The notes: generated from the letters alone by a model not told the origin. Shown: positions 9,350 to 24,342, counted from the first letter of the stretch. The stretch: 64,000 bases of DNA from Blasia pusilla (GCA_050084515.1 CM114271.1:47988001-48052000); one strand, 5' to 3'. A program made the numbers and translations.

Positions 9350-11996
9350 GACCAAACCTTAAATGGAAAAAAAAACTTTTCATTTTCTACATTGTCGAAC
9401 TATCTCATCTTGACCTATAATTTGGTACACATCATCCCCAAAGTGCATGTAGCTTTCTTTCAAAGTTTCAAGAAAAAATGAGTTCTGACCAAAAGCTCGA
9501 AATGTTTTAAGTCATTTCTTAACCCGTGCCATCAAACCTTCAATGAAAAGAAAGTATTTTCATTTCCCATATTGTCCAACTATCTCACGTTGATCTGAAA
9601 TTTGGTGCACATGGTCCCCAAAGTGTATGCATCTCTCTTGCAAAGTTTCAAGAAAAATGGATTTTTGACCAAAACCTCAACAATCGCGAAGATATTTTTT
9701 AACCCGCGTCATTACACCTTTGATGAAAAGGAGGTCTTTTCAATTTTTTATCTCGTCCAAGTATCTAATCTTGAGCTGAACTTTGGTACATATGATTTCC
9801 AAGGTGCATGTCATTCTCTTGAAAACTTTCAAGCAAAATGAAGTTGTAACAAAAACCTCAAAATTTGTTAACTCATTTTTTGAACCCGTGCCTTGAAACC
9901 TTGAATCAAAAGAATGTCTTTTTATTTTCCATCTTGTCCAAATATCTTATCTTCCTGATCCCCAAGGTCTCTTGCAGAGTTCCAAGCAAAACAAAGATTT
10001 GACCAAAAGTTCATAAATTGTTAACTCATTTTTTGAATCCTACTCGACCTTAAACCTTCAATCAAAAGGAAATATTCTCATTTTCTATCTTTTCCAATCA
10101 TCTCATTTAGAGTTGATAGTTGGTAAACTTGATCCCCAAGGTATATGTTCCTCTCTTGCAAATTTTCAAGCTAAATTGAGCGGTGACCAAAAGCTCAAAA
10201 ATAACTAAGTCATTTTTTGACCCACGCCATTAAACCTTCAATGAGAATGAGGTATTTTCGTTTTTCATCTTGTCCAAATATCTCATATTGAGCTTAACTT
10301 TGGTATCCATGATCCCCAAGGTGCATGTAGCTCTCCTCACAAGTTTAAAGCAAAATGGAGTTATGACCAAAAGCTAAAAAAATTTTGACTCGTGTTTTGA
10401 ATCGACGTTAATAAATCTTCAATGAAAATGGGATGTTTTCATTTTTCATCTTGTCCATTTTTTATCATGTTGCATAGAATATGTATTTTGAAATTTGAAA
10501 TTTGCAAGAGAGGAATGTATCCACAAATTCATACTTTCTAATTTGACCCTCAATGAAAAAATCATTGTTTTATTAGGATGAATGTCACAAAAAGGGACTT
10601 CTTCCAAATAACATTCTTACAATAATCTTTACAAAATAAGTTTGCTACAACCATTTACTAATCCATTTCACTAAGGTCACTACTCACTTTACTAGTCTAG
10701 GTCTATGGTTGGGTTTAGTGGATTAAGATGTAGGCGGTAATTTGAAGGCTCAAGAATTCAAATTCGGCAATGATTTCTTGTTGCAATTGTTTCATTATGG
10801 GATAAAATGTATGAAATATCCATCAAATTGATGGGTTGATAGTTTGAGAGATCCGATATGAGAACATCATTATTGTTAGGCTCATCAACTGAGTCCACTT
10901 TTTCATTGTTCAAAGATTGTGGAGGAGAATCCTGCATAGGTTCACTTGACTCAATGGAATAATTATGAATTCCTATCGGTGCAACAATCTGAGGGTCGTA
11001 GGTTGTGTTAACAGAAGTGTCCGATAGATGCGGTTCTCTAGAAGTCCTCCTTTGTTGCTCTTCCTCGTGCTCTCGAATCCAATATTCCATAACATCTTTG
11101 TCTCGTCGAGACACCTCAGAGTCAAAATTTTCTATATTGTCGATAAAAGAATCCTTGTCACGTCTGTTATAATAGATCGACGAGATATAGTAGAGTGCCT
11201 TCTCGAGTAGTGGAGGACATGCTCAAGAGGTCGAGGATGACTAGCTGAGGCCCCGGAAAACCTGAGAGAGCGGGTTTTCCCTTCGTTTCGGTTCATTTCG
11301 AGCCATATAGATAAACTTACTATTTTAGGCAAGTGCCCTTTTAAGTATCTAGTCGACATTTTATTTTTGGTACATGGCTCTTGACCTCCTACATCGGGTC
11401 AAGAGCCAAGGAGGTGACTTGGGAGCATAAGTTACCATGGAGAGAGCTTGGGAGAGGGGAGGGGTATACCTCAAGGAGAGAGAGCTTGAGAACTCATTCT
11501 CTCTTTGTTGAACCTGTTGGCACGAGGCGGCCAAGCTATGGTGCCTTGCCTTTTGAGTGTAATCCAAGCCTCTAATCAGGGTAGTAGGTTTGGTTTGACA
11601 TTGAGAGAGACATGTGAGAGTGCACACATGTGAGAACTATGGTGTTGTGAGAGAGATTTCACCGTATTTTACAAAGAGAGAATGAATGAGTGAGAGAGCT
11701 TCATGGGGGAGCTCGTTGGTTGCTCGATGTTTGGTGCAGGTTGGGGGACCGTGTTCCCCGCTTCATGGCTCATGGGAGTGCTTATCGAAGCAAGAGTCAT
11801 GCGAGTTTTCTGTTTTGCCTTTTTTTTTTACGAGAGAGTGGCACGTGGAAGCGCTGACCAATTTTTTTTATAGGAATTGAATATGGGGGTGGATTGCTCC
11901 ATGCCGGTGCTCTCGGGAGCACCATATACATTCTCACAGGTTTTACATTTTTTTGAGAGAAATAAGCGCGGAAGCGGTGCAAAATCTTGTGGAGGA

Positions 11997-12404
11997 TGTC
12001 ATGACCATACGGATTATGTCGTAGAGTATAGTGTGGTAGTAGAGGCCATACCTTATGTAGGGCCGCTGTGTCTAGGTAGAGATGCGATTTCATACATAGG
12101 GTTGGGAGTTACTCAGTAAAGGGTGACTTTTCCAGTAGGGCCCGCTCTTAGGTTGGTGGATATAAGGTGGAGTGCACTCAAAGAACAGTTAGTTCTTTGA
12201 GTTGAGCGTGTTGCGTTGGGAGTTAGCCTTGGTAGTGAGTAGAGCTCTTGGCTATGGTGTTTCCCGCAAGCTTCGACCTAAATTCTCCCATCGTGGAGTG
12301 GGTTTGGCTCGATTGTATGTGATTCTATATGTGTTTTATGATAGTAGGTCTTTCACGAATTTCACTCAAAGAACTAACGTAGATCGATAGTAGCTTCAAT
12401 TGTG
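11997..12404 (+). repeat. Terminal repeat A1 (5' incomplete LTR)
   Basis: Matches 21144-21518 (about 13 substitutions by eye, plus a ~34-bp indel near the end). It lacks segment B. Confidence 0.9.
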
Positions 12405-12967
12405 GATCAGTAGCATCTAGTTAGGGCTGATTGTGTACTCAGCCGTGGATGTTCGTGGCTTGTGGCCTATGTTGGAGTTGTGAATCTGGTGCGTGGTTGG
12501 TTGGGAAAGAAGCGCCTTGCTGAGAGCTTTCCAACGCGCTTTAGATCTCCGGATTTCGTCAAGGGAGTTGGAAGTTATCAAGGATTGAAGATTCTGGTTC
12601 GTGTTCGACGGTTTTATGATGTGGAGAGCTTGGAGTGCGGAAGCTCTGTTGAAGTTCATCCAGATCGGGTGAGAGGTTCTTGTTGTTACTTGTATTTTGA
12701 TCTCATGTGAAGCTATCTGCTTGAGTGTGTGGAGCGTTGCGGATTCCTACGTGCATGAAACTGGGCGGAAGCGCTGTCGGATTTGCGATTCTGGAGGTGT
12801 ATGGACAGCAACTTTGTCTGAATTTTAGCTCCGAGTACAGAGCTTGATTGTAGCTGATTTCATGTGGAGAGATATCTATGGTGGTCAATTGAATTCTGGT
12901 CGAAACAGATTCAATTTTGGTCAAGGATTTGTGAAGTAATTGCTATTCGAAATTTCGCTGACTAGCT

Positions 12968-13021
12968 CTTCGAGGCAACTCGAAGAGGCTTCGAGGCAAC
13001 TCGAAGAGGCTTCGAGGCAAC
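12968..13021. repeat. 21-bp tandem repeat (CTTCGAGGCAACTCGAAGAGG), ~2.5 copies, in the element 5' region
   Basis: Directly visible; each unit can form a CTTCGAG/CTCGAAG hairpin. Confidence 0.8.
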
Positions 13022-13940
13022 TGATGGTAGCTCGGGGCGTGGGCGTGAGAGGCGGAGTAGGGAGCAAGGAGCAAGCAAGCAAGCTTTCTTGCTTGGGCGT
13101 GAGGCATTTTTAGCAGGATTTGTGATTTGAGTGTTGCATAACAGGTCACCCATCTTTGGGCTATTCTGCGTGGAAGACGCTTAATTGCTGAGTTCTTAAC
13201 TATGCCACTATACACACTGTTGTAGCTCATTTGGTGCTGTTCGGAGAGGTGTTAGGCACTTTATGCATTTCAAGTTTTTGGTTGATGGACCTCTAGCCCA
13301 TCGTGTGGTGTAGCCTCTCCATGCAGGTGATATTTTCAGGTGCTGCGAGTTCGATTAGCATGTCATCGACCCGCGGAGGAGTAGCTATTACGTTAGAATT
13401 GTGTGGTGGGTTTTCTGGATTCAGGGGATTCAGGGGAGCGCCACGTTTGGTGGATTGTGTTACCTTTATTTCTATTTGCGATAGGAGGATTGTGGTTGGA
13501 CTTCCTGTGTTTGGATCCCCTCCATCGTTGCTTCTTGCTTGCGCGCCCATTATTAGGGTTGACGCTAATTTCCAGAGTAGTGTTACTCCTGTGTGCTACT
13601 GGTAGTGAGGCTCGAGTGATGGCCAGTAGACCGTGGGAAGCTTCTTGTGGTGATGACAGGTTAGGTTGCCTACACCCATAGCTAGTAGAGCTAGAATAGT
13701 ACAGCGACATCGACGTCACTTTATTACTTAGTGGTGGTAATTTGGTGGTGGGGCGGCATCGGCGTTGGTCATCACGGAGCTGTCTGGTGGTCTGGTTGGG
13801 GACAGTGGTGGTTTCACACGGAGTGGATTTAGGTATCGGCACCTTTTCCACTTCCGACGGTTGATGAAGAGGAGGACGAGGGTGTTCCAAACACCTAGTC
13901 TTCTACGTTGTTATCGAGTGTTGCAGCTTCATTGATTTGG

Positions 13941-15411
13941 GACATGGACGGGATATATGGGGCCATGAAGGGCCCACGACGATACTCGGGTGCAGTGGGC
14001 ACCATTGGGTTGGAGGACTTCATGCAGGAGTTTGATACGTGGTGTGATATGCAGATGTTGCGGAACGCCACGTTGTTTACACCCTTCTTGGCTTGGAAGG
14101 GGTTGTTTCAGAACTTGGAGGGACCACTCATGGATGATTACCATGAGTTTAGGAAGGACCATGTTGCTGAGATTGAGGCGTGGAGACAATATTGGTCTCC
14201 AGGCTATGTGTTTATCACCCATGGTGGTATAGGTAGTAGTGCTCCTACTATGCCAGCCAGCCCGACGTTGAGTGGTACGAGTATGAGCCGGAGTGGGGGT
14301 ACCAGTGGAGGTACCCATGGAGGTACCAGTGGGGGTACCAGTGGAGGTACCAGTGGGGGTACTAGTGGAGGTACTGGTGCCCCACCATCGTTTAGCCCGG
14401 TTGCAGAGTTCTTCAAGAGGTTGAAGAAGAACTATCAAGGAGTGAAGACAGAGAAGTTGAGGAGTCTTCAAGAATTTGAGCGAAAGACTGGTGAGAGTCT
14501 TTGTGAGGCATACACTCGTATATGACCCTTGATTTCAATTACCCAGGGTGTGACTGAGGCTCAGGCAGTCTTGTTTTGGTATGGGATCTTGGACAGAGAG
14601 TTGCGCCGCAGCGTACGTGATGCTACTCTTATGAGTGATGATTCACCCACATTGACCCATGTGTTTGCTCTATCTGAGAAGATTGAGCTTACCATGGTGA
14701 AGGAGAGAGTGGTGACATCGGCATTCAGTAGGGATACAACTACTACTTCTCGTGTTCATCAGCCCACCTCACAGTCTCGTAGTTGTGGTGGTGGTAGTAG
14801 TAGTGGGAGTCGTGGGGGGTACACACGACCTCAGTCAGGTCCTATAGGGACACTTGCGCAGAGACCATTGCCTTCATTTTTGCCCTGCCCCAAAGAAGGG
14901 ACGATCATGTTGGACATGTGGAGGTGATCATGTTAGGAAGTTTTGTCCCCAAGAGGATGGGAGACGGACTTTGGAGGATGGGCCTCAGTCGGCCCCAACT
15001 CAATGTGATCATTGCGGGAGACTAGGTCATCCTCGAGAGCGTTGCTTTGATCTTCATCCAGAGTTGAGATTAGGCCGCGGCCGTGGTGGAGTAGCTCCGA
15101 GAGGCCGAGGTGGTAGAGGTGGTAGGGGTGGTAGAGGTGGTAGAGGTGGACCAGTGGTTGGAAAGCCTACGGTGGCTACCCCTACCACTACGACAGAGGC
15201 AGGTATGGCTGCCATGATTGAGCACTTGGAGCAAAAGTTGGCTACTATGGCTGGTATCCAGCATAGATCAGGCTCGGGAGCAGGGGCTTCCACCTCATAT
15301 GGAGGGGATGATCTCTCTTATACGGCGAGTGCAGCACAAGTTGAGGCATCGGCTGCAGTTACGAGAGGAGCCACGTGGTGCTACTGTGGAGTTGGACCCA
15401 TAGAGGGGTGA
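13941..15411 (+). pseudogene. gag: gag with two zinc knuckles and RGG tract
   Basis: CWTCGGDHVRKFC and CDHCGRLGHPRERC knuckles, (GGR)n, GGTS repeats; a stop at 14523-14525 and a frameshift near 14880. Confidence 0.8.
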
Positions 15412-15777
15412 GGTTGGGAGGCAGGCTAGGCTTCCCCAGTCATTCTTGTTGTTTGAGGTGCATAGGTCTCCATCCATGGTTCCTACGCAACCTATTGAGC
15501 CGACAGTGGGGACTGAGGCATCTACATCGCGTGTAGTAGACACGAATGCAACATCCAGTGCAGTATTGCGGATGGCAACTTCAGTGTTGGGATCCCCATT
15601 GTTTTCAGTGTTGCGGTGGAGCGACCCTCTATGTCAGGTGTAGCATTGAGTACTAGTGCTACTTGGCAGGCAGCAGCGGCGAAGATGGATGCATTACCAG
15701 CCCGGCCAGCCATTGATCGTGAGAGGCTTACACATGGTGTATGTATGTTGGACAACCGGAGTGGGATATTCCGATAG

Positions 15778-16110
15778 GTGAGTCCTACAAGACAGGTGTA
15801 TAGACCAGATAGATTCTTGTTAGACTCTGGTGCCCAACCTTTGATGTTGGGAAAGGCGGCATGTATTAGTTTGGGTATTCGGAGGTCAGAGCTTGAGCCT
15901 TGCCCATTTCAGATTCAAACATCACTTGGAGGAGCCAATGATAGGTTTCAAAAAATGACACGGGAGAAGTTTTCTGTACAATTGAGACCAGATCATGCGA
16001 CTAATAGCTCCCGGTTGGGAGTATCTGCGGTAGTCACATTAGCCGAGTCGTATGATGTACTAGTTGGAGGAGCAGTATTGTACCCGATGGGTTTTCAGAT
16101 GGATTACTAG
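15778..16110 (+). pseudogene. Retroviral-type aspartic protease
   Basis: FLLDSGAQ catalytic motif and a downstream YDVLVG. Confidence 0.8.
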
Positions 16111-16549
16111 ACTGAGACAACATCTTATAGACCTGGTTGGCAGTCTGGGGATGGATGTATGAGCCAAGTTCCTGTGAGATTTATTTATGGGGCTCGACCA
16201 GGAGGGTCTTCCCCAACAGTGTTGGCATCTGTGGCAGGTTTTAGTGGAGTAGTCACTTGGCCAGGAGACTTTTTGGAGGATAATGTTTCTGCTATGGATT
16301 CTCCTGTGCATGAGGAGGTAGAGGAGGTCCCTATTTTTGCAGCAGTGGCATCCTCATCGTTGGATGTGCCACTTTGGAGTTCAGGCGGTGCACTACGGCA
16401 GGAGGCTAATCGCCTAGTGCAGGAGGCTTGGTGTGAGGCTGTTATACCTCACGAGGAAGAGGAGGCCCCACGGCGGACTCCTACTTCTGGTCCAGTTGGG
16501 TTATCCCCTCTGGATACTACACCCATTGTATGGGAGTATCTGCCGGAGG

Positions 16550-17500
16550 GAATTTGTGTGTTAGATCTCTTTGGTGGGATTAGCACTGGTTTGGCCGAAG
16601 TGTTGCAGGCCGATATTCCTGTGCGGAGATACGTGTATGTGGAGCGAGATGAGACGGCCCAGAGAGTCTCATCCCGACATATTGGTCAGTTGATACGGAG
16701 ATATCATGAGTTATTTCCGCCATCAGCTATTCGTGGGTACCAGCCTGCTTTGCTGTCACACATTGCATTGTTGGGGGCACTGGACCTTGAGAGGGTTGGT
16801 CCTGTGGATTTGATGATTGCTGGATGGCCATATCAGGGTCATACAAGTGCTGGTCGTGATGAGGGATTACACGACCCTAGGTCTCGATTGTTTTGGGAGA
16901 TGTTACGGGTGTTACGACATCTTCAGGTTCATCAGGCACGTGCTCTAGCTTACATTCTAGAGAATGTTCCATTGTTGGGTGACACTCGGACCCGGATGAT
17001 GGCGAGTGTTCATAAGGTGGGGTCTTGGATTGGACTTGCGGTGTTGTTGGATGGAGCGCGAGTTGGCTCGCGTGCACATCGTCCATGCTTGTGGTGGACA
17101 AACTTGTTGCCTAGGGAGGTTCTACGTCGAGCATATGATGTAGTGCAGCGGGATCCTTGCCTTACAGTGGATAGTATCTTGGATATTGGGCGACTTTCTC
17201 ATGTGGTGAGGGTTATTGATTGGTCACCCATGGCAGTGGTGAACCGTGTGGGCCAGCCTAGGATGGCACTACCCACATTTGTGAGTTTTCCCTCGTCACA
17301 TGCATACAGGGAAGGTGGTCCCGGGCTTGTATGGGATTCTCATGTGCGATAGTTGGTGGAGCCTAAGGCTGATGAGAGAGAGCGTGCGATGGGATTTGCT
17401 ACTGGTGTGACAGCGGTTGCTTCCATTTCTGAGGCTTCACGACATCATGTGTTGGGTCAGGCCATGGACCTGAATTGTTTGACTTGGATTTTGATTCTTG
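16550..17500 (+). pseudogene. C5 cytosine DNA methyltransferase domain, DNMT3-like, inside pol
   Basis: Motif I VLDLFGGISTG, II YVERDE, IV DLMIAGWPYQG (PCQ->PYQ), VI YILENV, VIII AHRPCLWWTNL, IX-X ERERAMGF...SRHHVLGQAM. In-frame stop at 17350-17352. Confidence 0.88.
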
Positions 17501-17859
17501 GTATGGCCAAGCAGCGTCGACTTCGGACTATGTCTGTGGGTCTTCCACCCCTTGTAATGAGCTCGATGGCTACCAGGACGGTAGAGGCATCGGCTGGGGG
17601 CAAGGAGAGTAGTATTTTGCATCCTTGGAGTAAATGGGATGTAATGGTTGGGCATGTGGAGTTGGTTGCTCATGCTGGTGGAAGAGTTATTTTCTCAGAT
17701 GATGGTGTAGCTAAGGGTGTACCATCTTGTGAGGGGGTTGCGTAGCAGCCAATGGTATCGTCCTCTACCTCTAGTGTGCCAGTGGAGGAGACTTGGGAGC
17801 CATTACTTAGGCCCAAGCTTACGGGAGGTGTGAAACAACGCTTGACATAGTTCCTACGT

Positions 17860-19190
17860 GCTTATAGGAGTTGTTTTGCCTTTAGCATGAAGGAGTTGGG
17901 TGCTCTGGTTGGACCCGGTATACGGATTGATTCGGCTAGTGATACGCCAATTTCCGTCATCCCTATCGATATAGTGATATGGAGAGGGACCTGATTCAGA
18001 GTAGGACGTTGGACCTTTTGGAGGCTGGATTAGAGAAGTTGTCGCATGGAGAGTATGCACCAGCCACTCTCATGCCTCATAAAAAGGATATGCATGGCAA
18101 CTACACGGATAGGCGGATGTGTGGAGATTACCGTCCTATCAATCGACAAACCAAGGCCGATAGGTATGCCATGCCTACACCTGAGGAGATCTTTGATGTG
18201 GAGGGACAGGCAAAGATTTTCAGTATTTTTGGATCTTGGCAGATACCATCAATTGCCGATTCGGGAGAGTGACAAGGCCAAGACAGCATTTTGGGGTGTC
18301 AACTCTCATGGCAAGGATTGTTTATACCAGTGGAAATTCTTACTCTTTGGGTTGAAGAATGCACTTGCCGAGTTTCAGAGAGTGATGGACAGGATCCTAG
18401 CAAGGTTGGATTTTTTCGGTGTTACATTAATGATATCTTGGTGTTCAGTAACACGGTGGAGAAGCTTCAGATATATTTGCAGATGGTGTTTGAGCGGTTG
18501 AAAGCTCATGGTCTACGTTTGCATCCAGGAAAGTGTAAGTTCTTCCATGAGGATGTTGAGTACTTGGGTCATGTGATCTATCTAGGTGGTTTGGGAGTTC
18601 AGCAAGCAAAGGTGGAGGCTATTGCACTTATTCCGTGTCCGGTAGATGTGAGTAGAGTTCGAGCATTCATGGGATTGGCGAACTTCTGTCGGAGGTATGC
18701 GAAGGGATTTAGTGCTATGGCAAAGCCTTTGAACCAATTGCCGAAATCAGATCAAGAGTGGCATTGGGGAGATGATCAGGACAGAGCTTTTGTGGAGCTT
18801 AAGGCCCAGTTGGTGGCGGTGCCTATCTTGAGGAGACCTATCATAGGGCGCCCATTTCAGTTACACATTGATTGGAGTAGGTTGGGACTTGGAGCGGTGT
18901 TGACACAACATGATGATGAGCACATGGAGTTTCTGGTGGCCTATGCAAGTCGTTCGAATAATGCAGCGAAGTTGCGCTATAGTTCATATGAGGGAGAGTG
19001 CTTGGCAGTAGTGTGGGCTGTGGCACACTTTAGGTGTTACTTGTTTGGCACACAGTTTACCCTTGTTATCGATCACCAACCGCTCAAGTGGTTGATGGAG
19101 TCGACAAGCTTACAGGAAGCTTGCACGGTGGGCTCTTATCTTACAGAGTATGACTTCCGGTGGTACATAGACTGGAGTTGCCAACCTTGA
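17860..19190 (+). pseudogene. Reverse transcriptase + RNase H (frameshifted)
   Basis: RMCGDYRPINRQT...YAMP, FGLKNA, YINDILVFS (YIDD variant), KCKFF..VEYLGH; RNase H LHIDWS.LGLGAVL, AYASR, YSSYEGECLAVVW, IDHQPL. Confidence 0.93.
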
Positions 19191-19569
19191 TCTTTGATGG
19201 GTTGAGTAGGAACCCATGTACTAGCCAAAAGGATACAATGGGGCTAGATGGCATGGCGAGGTTGATGAGGAGATGGTGCCAGGTTGGCATGCATCCGCCT
19301 TTTTATGTTGGTTAGGGGTGGACTCTAGTATGGAGGACCACATGATATCTTACTCTAGTCAGAGGGTAGATGGCCAGCCTTCAGATCCTAAGGTTGGAGA
19401 TGGTGGTACGGATCAGCGTGATATTCATGATGATGCGTTGGTGTTGGAGTTCCTACGGACCAATAAGGTGCCAAGCATAGTGAGTGCCAAGGAGCGAGAC
19501 CGTGTTCTTCAACGTGCTAAGAGGTATCAAATGGAGGGAACACATATTCTCCGTGTGTGGGAGGATGGT

Positions 19570-20862
19570 AGAGTACGAGTAGTGCCGTATTTGGCTCAGA
19601 GAGAGCGCATTGTGCGAAATGCCCATGAGGAGTTGGGATATTTTGGTGTTAAGCATACGTATAGCTTACTCCTTGGTCAGTATTGGTGGCGTGGCATGCA
19701 TACTCAGGTGCAGCAGTTGGTGTCATGTTGTATGGTTTGTCACCGGGTGAGGGCATCATTCATTGTCCCTACACCAAAGTTACACCCCTTGCCTATTATG
19801 GGGTTGGGTTACTGTTGGAGTGTGGACTTTGCGGGACTGTTACCGTTGACTGTTCGACATCATCGATATGTGTTGGTGATGGTGGAGCACTTCTCCAAGT
19901 GGATTGAGTTGGTGGCATTACTTGACAAGGCAAGTGAGGGAACGGTGTATGCGTTTCTTGATAGAGTGCTTAGTCATTTTGGTGCACCAACTGAAGTGGT
20001 GATCGACCAGGATACAGAGTTTTAGGGTGAGTTTCAAGTTTTGTGTGAGAAGGCGTTGATTGATCATCGGACCACGTCTCGAGATCATCCAGAGGCGGAT
20101 GGTTTGGCTGAGCGTGTGGTTCAGATGGTGAAGAGGGCATTGCGCAAGTATGGCCTACAGAAGGGGCATCTTGGAGACTGGGATATTCAGTTGCCATGGT
20201 TAGCCATGGGGTATAGGTTCAGTCGCCAAGCATCCTTGGCTTCCTTCTCACCTTATTTTCTGTTATACGGCCGAGATCTAGACTTGTCTGCAGCAATTCG
20301 TCGGGAGTCTAATGAGGTGGTGAACCTTGATGATCCAGAGATGTGGATAAGAGTGTGTTCACAGCGGGTAGAGCTCTTCCGGAGAGTTATGCCAAAAGCC
20401 TTTGAGAATCTTGCCATTGCTCAACACAGGGATACGTTGCGGTATGCAACCATTCGGGGTGGAGGTTATCGACCATCGATTCGTAGGTTCCATGTGGGAG
20501 ACTTTTTCTATTTGCAGTTGATTGCACTGACAACGTTGGATGTGACGGCAGGCCGCACTATTTTACGAGTGCGCGAGATGTTAGCTTCTGGAGTTCTCAT
20601 GTTGGAGGGTCGTGATGGAGTTGTTTGGAAGGACCATGTGCGCAATTGTGCGCCATGTCATCTTCCAAATGTGGATGGTACTGTTGACCGAAGCTTAGCC
20701 ATGATACGTGCTAGCTTGAGGTGCATGTTGTGTGGGTCTGCTGGTAACGCAGCCCGTATGTTGGTGTGTGATCGGTGTTATAGGGGTTGGCACATGATGT
20801 GTTTGACTCCACGTATGGATGTTGTTCCTACTAGAAGGTGGGGTTGTCCTTGATGTACTTAG
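19570..20862 (+). pseudogene. DDE integrase with C-terminal PHD finger
   Basis: Zn region HEELGYFG...CMVC; core VDFAG...EHFSKW...IDQDTEF...HPEADGLAER. PHD is CMLC...VCDRC.RGWH..CL......WGCP*C, with a TGA at 20851 in place of one codon and then TGT. Confidence 0.9.
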
Positions 20863-21036
20863 GAGAGGTAAATGACTTGATCTTTGCATGATATGGATTA
20901 CAGATGTGCGACTAACGATGGGGCAACCTAGCACCCGGCCTTCTGATTCGTGCACCCAAGAAGGTGTATAGCATGTAGTAGATGTATAGGGCTACCTGGG
21001 AGTTAGAGGGACCTAACCGCCAATTATGGGGGCGAG

Positions 21037-21141
21037 TTGTGGTACACTTGTGTTTGTGGATGCTCTCGTCTATGTTATGTATGTATGTGAGTTTGGTATG
21101 TCAGCGATGTATGTTGTATGACGATGTGGATTTGCACGACA
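21037..21141 (+). repeat. Repeat B1 (105 bp, ends GCACGACA)
   Basis: Near-identical to 21513-21617. Confidence 0.9.
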
Positions 21142-21143
21142 GC

Positions 21144-21617
21144 TGTCATGACCATACAGATTATGTCGTAGAGTATAGTGTGCTAGTAGAGACCATACCT
21201 TATGTAGGGCCGATGTGTCTAGGTAGAGATGCGATTTCATACATAGGGTTGGGAGTTACTCAATAAAGGGTGACTTTTCCAATAGGGCCCGCTCTTAGGT
21301 TGGAGGATATAAGGTGGAGTGCACTCAAAGAACCGTTAGTTCTTTGAGTTGAGCGTGTTGCGTTGGGAGTTAGCCTTGGTAGTGAGTAGAGCTCTTGGCT
21401 ATGGTGTTTCTCGCAAGCTTCGACCTAGATTCTCCCATCGTGGAGTGGGTTTGGCTCGATTGTATGTGATTCTATACGTGTTTTATGACAGTAGGTCTTT
21501 CACGGATTTCAATTGTGGTATTCTTGTGTTTGTGGATGCTCTCGTCTATGTTATGTATGTATATGAGTATGGTATGTCAGCGATGTATGTTGTATGACGA
21601 TGTGGATTCGTACGACA
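21144..21617 (+). repeat. 3' terminal repeat A2+B2 (complete LTR-like unit TG...CA)
   Basis: A2 at 21144-21518 matches A1; B2 at 21513-21617 matches B1. Confidence 0.9.
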
Positions 21618-24342
21618 AGGAGAAAGAGACGTTAGGCTTTATGATAGTCCCTGTCAATTTTTATCGGAATGTTCAATTCAAAATATTTTTTAACTTTGTT
21701 GTAGATGGTAAAGTTGTGCACGTTGTGCAATAGACGATGCGTAATTTGGAGTTGGGATCAAAAAGAAATGGACAATCTTGCAAAATTTCCAATGGTGGGG
21801 ATTTTTAGGGTTAAATTATTCATACCCTAAACCACCCGCTGCGTTGGTGGCAGCCTTTGCCGTCCATGGCCCATGTTGATGATCAACAGTCATTGTTAAT
21901 GGTCAAGTATCATCGTCACCGTCAACGGTACACCATCCATCGTGGGCTGCCGCCACCGCCTAGCACTGTTGAGATCCGCGTTCGGCCATTGCCCACCCTT
22001 GGTTGCTATTGCCGCCATTTCGGAGTGGAGATTCTTCCACGACGAGCGTTGATTCTCTGACTTGCGCCAAGTGTTTATCTTGATTTCCGAGAAACACCCT
22101 TGTCTCCAAACCTTGAGTTTGTGTAGATGTACACCTAATCCCTGGCACCCTTGTTGGTCAATTTATTCCTATGCTTTGTTATGGATAAAACCATAACTAC
22201 TCCAATTTCTCTTGGTTGAAGAGGAAGAAACCACTTGTGCTAATATGGACTTAGCCACAAAGCGCAATGTTTGCGCATTTTCTTCGTGCATGCTCCATCA
22301 ATCAAAGGGGCTAAGTGAATCGATAACTTCCCTACCAAACTCGTCCAGAAATAGTTCCACATGGTTCACAATATTGCCCAACTTTCGCAAATAATTACCT
22401 ACATAAGAATTAGCTTTGGTGACATTGAGGCCATGCACCCCCTTTGCATGAAAATTTAGATATTGTTTGAAATCTCTCATGCACTCAACATTTGAAGTGA
22501 TATCTTGAACACTATTAAGAAGATTCTAAGGGGCGAGGATGTAGCCTATTGAATGCAACTTGTTGTGGATAAGTGCCCATGACCTAGAAATAACATCAAC
22601 CATTTCCGTAGCATTGGACATTTTCACAAAGAAACCGCAACGCCTTCCCTTCATACTGGGCCACAGAGTTATAGAAAAAGAATAGACCGCTTCCATTATC
22701 TCAAATATGTGGCAATAAATACGCATTGTCATTGCTTTATGCCCATCACACTCTCTTAACAGAATAATAGTTGGTAAATCAGCATCAAACTACTCTTCAT
22801 CTTCTATCCAAAAATCGTGATTGGCCATAAAAGTCTCAATCTCTCGTGCCTTTTCCCTTGCCTCGTATTGCTCCCATTAAATACTCCCTAAAATAATTTG
22901 TGGAAATTATGGCTTCCATGAATTTGGCCATCACCCAAGTTCTAGTCCTCACAAATATTACCATCTCACGAGCTTGTGCAAAAATCCTGTTCACCCGAGA
23001 TTATTTACCTCATTCTTCACATGTTAGATCAAGAGAATGTGATACGCATCCACCCCAAAGAATATAAGAAAACTTTGCTTCGATTAGTCTCTTTGTTGCT
23101 CGCTCATTACTAACATTGTCTATTATAAGTTGCAACATACTTTTCTTGATTGATATGCATGATAGTCCTCTCTATGTGACCTGCCAACCATTCTGCCATT
23201 TGGGACTCCCCCTTGGTGTCTACCGACTCAATCATGATCTCACCTTGTGGACATGAGACCATGATGTTCACTAAAGACTCACTCCTCACATTGGTCCAAG
23301 AATCCTTGATGATCTCGGCCCCCAAACGCAAATTATCCAATATGCCATCCACCTTTTCCTTCATCTTTCCCATATGTTTCTCAAGTAGGGTGGTGCGCAA
23401 CGAATTATAACTAGGATGTGAGTAATCCTTCACTCTTGTTGTTGCCAACATTGCTTGTTTGATAGAATCTTTCCGTACTACATTGAATGTTATTTCACAC
23501 TCATATAAACACTCCTCCCACATGTCATTTGCAACTTTTATTCCTTGGATGTTGAAAGAATCCCTCTAATCAGCTTGCTTTGTCCCATAACTATGAGTCC
23601 CTCGAATCGGCCCAGCAACACCATTGCATTCCTTTAGACTATCACACGGTGGCATGTGTGCAACCCCATTAACATTTGGTACAACATTAACACTATTTCC
23701 TATCTTTCGCAAACCTATGTATAATATAATGGCGTTGTATCCACTTCACTAGAGGATCTCATTTCCCTTCTGTATCCATTTCCCACAAGTACCTTGTTTC
23801 AAAGGTCCCATTGCATACCAAGAGGGACCTTCACATATAATTTGGCATGATGGGTATCTTGATTCCCATCTTTTGTCTTTTGTGTCTCTCTTGCAAAATA
23901 CTCCACCATCTGCGCGATATGATAAGTTTTCATAAAACATGAGCAATACTTACACCGCCATATGCTTGATGTTCTACCTTCTATTTGTACTTCTTTTTAA
24001 TGTTCCTTCACGATATGTTTGAGTTCTTTGGCTTTGGTCATGACTATAGGCACACACTAACCTCACCCAACAATATTTGGATAATTTGCAATAAATTTAC
24101 AAATCCGATAAAATGCAAGAAAAATAAAATGCAAGATATATCGAGCGATAAAATGTATGCAAATTACACCAAATATTAATTTTTAATGCTCCAATAATAA
24201 ACTTTTAACACTCACTATGAACAAGAAAAAAATATGCTAACCTAGATAACCGAGATAACTTAAATTATGAGGGTTATCCCGTAGCAAAACATATTCTCAC
24301 TTATCAAGTTCAACTATCTATGAAGAGAAAAACTTCAGAGAA

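Follow-up and report, generated by a model that had tools for sequence, protein, structure and literature searches.

The 64,000-nucleotide stretch of Blasia pusilla DNA analysed here (GCA_050084515.1 CM114271.1:47988001-48052000, hereafter the window) carries at positions 11997-21617 a dead copy of a Ty3/gypsy long terminal repeat (LTR) retrotransposon with a captured DNMT3-like methylase. Its repeats follow the order A1-internal-B1-NN-A2-B2, which is a circular permutation of a two-LTR element whose LTR reads B-NN-A. The integration sites are abutted inside this reverse-transcribed LTR, not at the LTR ends. To explain such a layout, we propose that the integrase cuts the internal LTR site in end-joined complementary DNA (cDNA), e.g. 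in a 2-LTR circle, and we give this reading a probability of about 60%.

The repeats, target-site duplications and priming sites of the window copy are as follows, in base pairs (bp) or nucleotides (nt) and all on the + strand:

11993..11996, +, left target-site duplication AGGA, from the sequence
11997..12363, +, A1, which starts with the integrase end TGTCATGACC and is predicted to hold the downstream U3 (unique 3' region), R (repeat) and U5 (unique 5' region), from the repeat match to A2 and a 22-copy alignment
12161..12167, +, TATA-like box TATAAGG (TATAAAG in most relatives), a putative promoter element about 30 nt before the segment complementary to the primer site
12177..12202, +, hairpin CTCAAAGAAC-AGTTA-GTTCTTTGAG(T), from alignment and fold
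12364..12378, +, primer-binding site of self-priming type, ACTCAAAGAACTAAC, directly after A1, from alignment and fold
21026..21034, +, polypurine tract ATGGGGGCG (CTAGGGGGGCG in relatives), directly 5' of B1, from copy comparison
21035..21141, +, B1, predicted first 107 nt of U3, ending with the integrase end GCACGACA, from the repeat match to B2
21142..21143, +, 2-nt spacer GC between the abutted ACA and TGT ends, ACAGCTGT being palindromic here, from the sequence
21144..21510, +, A2, from the repeat match to A1
21511..21617, +, B2, joined to A2 at the joint of U5 end and U3 start (TTTC followed by AATTGTGG) and ending in ...ACGACA, from the repeat match to B1 and RNA depth
21618..21621, +, right target-site duplication AGGA, from the sequence

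Both repeats were recovered by a repeat search and by self-blastn of the element. A1 (11997-12364) and A2 (21144-21511) match over 368 bp with 355/368 identical positions (96.5%). B1 (21037-21141) and B2 (21513-21617) match over 105 bp at 94.3% identity, so that the 105-bp B which the original prediction had placed twice at the 3' end, around A2, was found by both methods. Once the two preceding bases are counted, B extends to 107 bp (21035-21141 and 21511-21617, 100/107 identical). Repeats of 368 and 107 bp at 94-97% identity, in such an order, are far beyond chance, and blastn of the element against the whole 64-kilobase (kb) window showed no additional copy of A, B or the internal part. The element starts with TGT and ends with ACA within a terminal inverted repeat (TGTCATG / CACGACA). 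The claimed 4-bp duplication AGGA does bound the whole unit (11993-11996 and 21618-21621). A lone 4-bp match has a chance of 1/256; the arrangement recurs with different 4-bp duplications in independent copies. In the case of the 5' end, it was correct that only A is present there, but the predicted A1 end at 12404 lies about 40 nt too far, because the homology between A1 and A2 stops at 12363/12364. Positions 12364-12404 are a leader, consisting of the primer site and then unique sequence, which has only an 11-nt string, TTCAATTGTGG, in common with the joint between A2 and B2.

To place the window copy among relatives, metagenome contigs were scanned with the methylase alignment. The scan confirmed 146 of 240 candidate stretches, of which the best 80 were kept as loci; A and B then served as queries against these loci and the window, with matches in 39 loci. 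B-NN-A follows the coding part in five independent copies, namely the window, L031, L039, L040 and L072=L073. Among these, L039 and L040 are complete A..B-A-B copies, A2 of L031 is interrupted by the contig end, and L072=L073 has a small microhomology deletion at the B/A junction. A second gypsy family, with an integrase identity of 44%, shows the same order in L008 (14582-16627): polypurine tract, B1, ACA-GT-TGTCATG, A2 and B2. As the split layout is found in independent relatives, it is a property of the family and not a local rearrangement. The second family (44-54% integrase identity) adjoins the first in three loci (L008, L021 1324-2019 and L039 15509-15766). Its L008 copy lacks the 5' part, and no additional copies of its repeats were found among the loci beyond L008.

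There are 23 independent 5' ends (25 listed, with L023 and L064 duplicating L022 and L063), each with its own flank, and none of the 23 has B upstream of A1, as a canonical B-A 5' LTR would. The alignment of independent copies that had been suggested as a check hence gave a recurring A1/B1-A2-B2 order with 4-bp duplications, and the contrary outcome named with it, two ordinary complete LTRs in other copies, was seen at 0/23 5' ends. Perfect 4-bp duplications flank 8 of the 10 complete copies:

A..B-A-B copies: window AGGA, L039 CATA, L040 TCTC (3/3 testable perfect)
A-internal-B copies: L015 TGTG, L022 TGTT, L056 TTCA, L066 TACA
Internally deleted copy: L067 CACA
A-internal-B copies with imperfect duplication: L014 3/4, L047 2/4

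With its single copy, the window alone could be explained by a one-off rearrangement, an assembly artefact or a solo A-B LTR nested beside an ordinary element. We give this explanation almost no credence, as it is contradicted by four independent metagenome copies with the same layout and by the second family. Furthermore, the duplications flank the whole unit, the spacer between B1 and A2 is 2 nt long and not a 4-bp duplication, and the B-NN-A and A/B joints also occur in DNA contigs of public runs.

Of 21 independent 3' ends, 15 show B followed by flank (A-internal-B), five show B-NN-A and one (L067) is internally deleted. The number of A-internal-B ends speaks for an alternative in which A-internal-B is the basic product. 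Here, both internal sites would be cut on linear cDNA, the left-hand B and the right-hand A would be lost as flaps, and A..B-A-B would be a rare by-product of joined or tandem LTRs, yet the sole replication-competent form. Consistent with this, perfect 4-bp duplications are present in four of the six complete A-internal-B copies. Assembler collapse of repeats that differ by 5-10% is an unlikely source of these copies because they are old, with 10-36 stops each (an open reading frame (ORF) of at least 700 amino acids is found in L069 only), and because in copies of similar stop density the repeats are 5-9% diverged; it may apply to the youngest copies. Against this alternative, a B1xB2 deletion of A..B-A-B would yield the same product with the same duplication, and the youngest two copies by stop density (the window and L031) are both A..B-A-B. 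It also differs from cleavage of end-joined cDNA only in the usual substrate. We regard it as unlikely. Three origins of A-internal-B are possible: linear cDNA may have received these cuts, a 1-LTR circle may have been cut, or a B1xB2 deletion may have followed later. Whatever their origin, A-internal-B copies are unable to rebuild the LTR.

The layout, the duplications and the places of both polypurine tract and primer site can be read directly from the copies; the tract and the site would delimit the reverse-transcribed LTR. A G-rich polypurine tract abuts the start of B1 in 17/19 copies. At the other end, 18/22 aligned copies carry ACTCAAAGAAC directly after A, one mismatch being allowed. 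This primer site is not of transfer RNA (tRNA) type; its reverse complement, GTTCTTTGAGT, lies within A some 30 nt after the conserved TATAAAG box. With a polypurine tract abutting B and a primer site abutting A, the cDNA LTR would be B-NN-A, and U3 would accordingly begin with B and U5 end with A.

The primer site appears to pair with the RNA of the element itself. The 3' arm and loop of the hairpin (12188-12202), which would form the 5' end of the RNA, are complementary to it, and with the transcript start placed from the TATA box the complementarity amounts to 11-15 nt. The window copy reaches a pairing of 15 nt, as its loop GTTA and its primer-site extension TAAC, both specific to the lineage, match each other. 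Across the alignment, in-register pairing holds for 84.6% of cells, and sliding by 1-3 columns lowers this to 30-45%. In addition, the structure of minimum energy predicted for 12189-12385 has its 5' end closed onto the primer site (z = -2.6). The hairpin at the putative transcription start is wholly or partly deleted in 5/22 copies (L002, L011, L018, L040 and L066; columns 203-243 of the A2 alignment).

The two junctions at the 3' end differ in character. The B1/A2 junction reads GCACGACA-NN-TGTCATGACC, so that both insertion ends are abutted in inverted orientation. The spacer NN is GC in the window, L031 and L039 and AT in L040; the second family has GT, and two contigs of run X1 have AC. 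The A2/B2 joint is variable: in L039 it is the exact U5 end followed by AGTTGTGG, from which the window differs by a single G>A; in L040, 17 filler nt are present together with the final 2 nt of the polypurine tract; the joint of L067=L061 contains 10 primer-site nt and 5 others; and two additional variants are present in DNA contigs of run X1. Primer-site or polypurine remnants at a variable U5/U3 joint are the look of joined linear reverse-transcription ends, as in retroviral circle junctions. Judged by its sequence, the A2/B2 joint thus looks like an end-to-end joint of cDNA, from U5 end to U3 start.

To relate the layout to transcription, two raw-read RNA runs (X22 and X23, whose species label is that of the best DNA run) were mapped on 11500-22100 at a likeness of at least 90% and counted in 354-nt bins. 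Almost all read pairs have the first mate on the - strand, and therefore, given usual stranded libraries, the RNA is of + sense. The depths for X22 / X23 were:

Internal part, 12916-21057: 8-142 / 5-177
21058-21411 (B1 end and most of A2): 56 / 78
21412-21765 (last 100 nt of A2, B2 and flank): 6.4 / 8.1
Beyond 21765: 0.7 / 1.4

At this bin resolution, transcripts of the family mostly end inside A2. Because the RNA depth falls about tenfold before B2 and few reads cross A/B, the B2 of a new copy would be rebuilt from B1. Some RNA reads carry joints that skip parts of the element: 1008 nt of the integrase (window 19381-20390, 16 and 27 reads, with nine other letters between), 6441 nt (window 14029-20471, 5 and 6 reads) and 97 nt over the polypurine tract and the start of B1 (window 20986-21084, 7 and 6 reads). 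Transcribed deletion derivatives are the probable source of these joints. The commonest differences of RNA reads from the window copy are C>T and G>A. In DNA, the family is very abundant, with 219,420 contig pieces mapped in run X1.

The RNA profile and the joints also bear on a cycle like that of DIRS or PAT elements, carried out by a DDE enzyme. In such a cycle, a near full-length RNA from the A1 start to B2 would be copied into single-stranded cDNA, its ends would be completed on a B1/A2 splint, and the circle would be opened by the integrase at the restored B2/A1. The order of the repeats is indeed the same as in PAT, Ngaro and SymbioDIRS, as far as described in the relevant parts of PMC5890265, PMC8969392 and PMC7192593. 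Likewise, the internal B1-NN-A2 is the exact sequence needed at B2/A1 of the circle. On the other hand, the roughly tenfold fall in RNA depth before B2 does not suit a template that reaches B2, and a polypurine tract at B1 and a primer site at A1 are marks of ordinary two-jump LTR synthesis. A variable A2/B2 joint with primer-site and polypurine remnants fits joined double-stranded ends and not the faithful copying of a template. Moreover, 4-bp duplications exist, and in a Pfam search on the stop-to-stop ORFs of the window (60 of at least 60 amino acids, both strands) 0/60 matched tyrosine recombinase families at E <= 0.01. We consider a cycle of this type quite improbable.

Returning to cleavage of end-joined cDNA, the steps can be pictured as follows. 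Transcription would start about 30 nt after the TATA box in A1 and end inside A2. The 5' end of the RNA would fold back on the complementary site after A and prime the minus strand, a self-priming as in Tf1. The plus strand would start at the polypurine tract before B, leading to double-stranded cDNA with B-NN-A LTRs. The ends of this cDNA (the U5 end of A and the U3 start of B) would then be joined head to tail, in a 2-LTR circle or a concatemer, giving the A/B joint. In the LTR preceding the primer site, the integrase would nick after each ACA of ACA-NN-TGT, with nicks 2 nt apart, like in retroviral 3' processing. Finally, the opened molecule would insert via a 4-bp staggered cut, which would result in A1-internal-B1-NN-A2-B2 and a 4-bp duplication. 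The joined intermediate and the internal cleavage are what we infer here from the copies. A non-canonical replication cycle, as was proposed in the original prediction, is supported by the family-wide layout, the 4-bp duplications and the positions of the priming sites.

Several observations weigh against this cycle. No circle or concatemer was observed. If either internal site of a 2-LTR circle were chosen at random, A-B-A-internal-B copies would be expected, and this permuted form is absent among the 23 5' ends (0/23, against five A..B-A-B copies). The split form is a minority among the relatives, given the 15/21 3' ends with A-internal-B, and stop density does not separate A..B-A-B from A-internal-B copies (p = 0.15). 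The spacer is not always palindromic, as the GT and AC variants show. In the case of the primer pairing, covariation is not significant, since the score observed is attained in 55/500 shuffles. Only the TATA box and the 354-nt depth bins indicate where transcription starts and where the poly(A) site lies. Finally, the relatives all come from short-read metagenome contigs.

The coding part identifies the class of the element. On the + strand, the Pfam search returned, in order, a C5 DNA methylase (ORF 16111-17352), RVT_1, RNase H, Integrase_H2C2 with rve, and a PHD finger. Together with the alignments to relatives, this gives the gene order gag, protease, DNMT3-like methylase, reverse transcriptase, RNase H, integrase and PHD:

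13944..15604, +, gag-like region, broken, which aligns to residues 1-530 of the Marchantia protein P0088
15649..17721, +, protease-like region, then DNMT3-like C5 cytosine methyltransferase, from Pfam PF00145 and alignment to relatives
17794..19190, +, reverse transcriptase and RNase H, with frameshift and stops, from Pfam and alignment
19225..20850, +, integrase with H2C2 zinc finger, rve core D-E-E, in-frame stop at 20023-20025 and C-terminal PHD finger, from Pfam and alignment

The gag-like region has no Pfam match in the window copy itself; a zf-CCHC gag knuckle is present in the relative L069. A DSG protease motif precedes the methylase in longer relatives, and the window protease was recognised by alignment. 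The methylase is of DNMT3 type, as its profile matched DNMT3A/B/C in 29 of 31 matches to solved structures. In the window copy the catalytic PCQ has become PYQ, and the reading frames are interrupted by a frameshift and by in-frame stops (7 in 1721 aligned codons), so that this copy is clearly decayed. The closest solved structures to L069 are Ty3 Gag-Pol (7q5b) and Ty3 reverse transcriptase (4ol8). The domain order reverse transcriptase - RNase H - integrase of Ty3/gypsy is present in the window, and so are a target-site duplication of 4-5 bp and TG...CA termini. Two complete LTRs at the inserted ends are not found, the 5' end having A only and the 3' end B-NN-A-B. The DDE integrase on a split-repeat element, as originally predicted, was recovered as an rve-type match, with no tyrosine recombinase in the 60 ORFs. 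Between the primer site and the first gag-like similarity lie about 1.5 kb (window 12379-13943) in which neither a Pfam match nor any resemblance to the Marchantia proteins compared was found.

Relatives of the methylase ORF help to place the host. The named ones among the near-length relatives (n=87) are from Calypogeia, Marchantia, Riccia and Sphagnum, and the named ones among the longer relatives (n=23) are from Marchantia and one Sphagnum; the remainder are metagenome proteins. As judged from these sequence matches, the host of the element family is bryophyte-like. Regarding base composition, G and T are enriched on the sense strand over the whole element (window 12001-22000, GC skew +0.22 to +0.28, AT skew negative), and this skew falls or reverses in the flanks. 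The left flank (11500-11853) is itself repeated in many copies, with a summed word depth of 74,802 in the DNA run X1; the element sits within other repeated DNA.

In the rve core, the first Asp and the last Glu appear to be in place, and the second catalytic position would be Glu in the family copies examined (VMVEHFSKW, against Asp in Ty3 VVVDRFSK). This Glu is shared by 135 of the 146 alignable proteins among the 150 best cluster representatives (P0111-P0260), the others having Asp (10) or Gln (1). Thus, as far as these alignments can tell, a large D-E-E integrase clade exists. A PHD finger stands at the C-terminus in 15/16 long members of the clade that were picked. In an integrase-alignment scan of viral contigs, 56 pattern matches were obtained and none was confirmed. 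The methylase lies before the reverse transcriptase in the window family (16111-19190), whereas in distant PHD-integrase relatives it lies between RNase H and integrase (P0108 and 4/16 picked representatives, P0118, P0148, P0161 and P0219). This difference in position suggests a relocation or separate captures.

On a tentative note, to which we attach slightly less than even odds, the whole eukaryotic Ty3/gypsy clade with a PHD-tailed D-E-E integrase, often with DNMT3, may use end-joined circular cDNA as a regular substrate. This would make it a DDE convergence on DIRS/Ngaro elements and on bacterial copy-out-paste-in insertion sequences (IS). In such a clade, integrase sites may lie back to back inside the LTR, and a 2-LTR-type junction may be opened like a restriction cut.

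In LTR retrotransposons and retroviruses, the textbook route is integration of both ends of linear cDNA, circles being dead ends. The present family keeps the LTR-type machinery (primer site, polypurine tract, DDE-type integrase and 4-bp duplications), yet its inserted form would derive from a molecule with joined cDNA ends that was cut at an internal site. If the proposed cycle is true, retrovirus-type integrases can take junction sites as a normal substrate, and LTR elements become mechanistically linked to tyrosine-recombinase elements through the split repeats of the latter. In that case, LTR-finding software would also miss or misclassify the family, as most copies are without terminal repeats. 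A family with a DNMT3-like methylase that is abundant and transcribed in a bryophyte-like host is furthermore relevant to the interplay between transposon and host methylation.

The closest known system is KnitGypsy-Dnmt3 of Klebsormidium nitens, to which the legend of Fig. 4c in de Mendoza et al. 2018 (PMC5890265) ascribes a repeat arrangement of DIRS type together with gypsy domains. It resembles the window element in its gypsy-type Pol with a Dnmt3-like methyltransferase and, as likened via this legend, in the A-coding-B-A-B layout. The statement in the original prediction that split repeats typify tyrosine-recombinase elements, and not gypsy elements, holds for its first half, the layout being typical of PAT and Ngaro; the second half is too strong, because the same legend gives the split layout on a gypsy-type element. 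The host differs, K. nitens being an alga and the named relatives of the window element bryophytes; no K. nitens proteins are among the 87 + 23 methylase-ORF relatives. The parts of PMC5890265 used for the comparison mention no duplications, primer site, polypurine tract or mechanism. In our literature search (subscription journals and the supplements of PMC5890265 lying outside it) we found no mechanism for split repeats on a DDE-integrase element and no paper on DNMT-bearing gypsy elements in bryophytes. Therefore, as far as the sources searched go, the split layout on a gypsy/Dnmt3 element is already in print for one alga and the mechanism is not. Chlamydomonas REM1 was named in the original prediction as having a similar incomplete 5' LTR; a passage on REM1 structure in PMC2774666 describes a truncated, reverse-oriented integrase and is not about LTRs.

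PAT, Ngaro and SymbioDIRS-Dnmt3 share with the window element the order A1-internal-B1-A2-B2, in which the internal junction equals the joined termini. Elements of the DIRS order, in the part of PMC8969392 that treats them, encode a tyrosine recombinase and make no target duplication. Unlike these, the window element has an rve integrase, 4-bp duplications, a polypurine tract and a primer site, and it has no tyrosine recombinase (60 ORFs). In the case of Tf1/sushi and Tcn1, the likeness would be a primer site complementary to the start of the element's own RNA and not to a tRNA. Self-priming Tcn1 gypsy elements occur in mosses and club-mosses, as stated in the passage of PMC6317226 on them. 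Tf1/sushi and Tcn1 differ in having ordinary LTRs and a chromodomain; the window element has permuted repeats, and its Pfam search found no chromodomain at the integrase C-terminus, a PHD finger standing there instead.

With respect to the junction itself, bacterial insertion sequences of the IS3/IS30 type have abutted inverted ends with a 2-3 bp spacer, and their circular or tandem intermediate is the active DDE substrate. They are bacterial DNA elements without reverse transcription, so that their likeness to the window element is analogy only. The 2-LTR circle junction of human immunodeficiency virus 1 (HIV-1) likewise has abutted CA...TG ends, a short spacer and internal nicks by a DDE integrase, and HIV-1 integrase cleaves this palindromic junction in vitro, as reported in the portion of PMC1905944 devoted to it; foamy virus integrase reportedly cleaves such a junction as well (PMC1180852). 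The retroviral junction exists only in circles, as a side route, whereas in the window family it is built into every LTR and apparently serves as the regular site.

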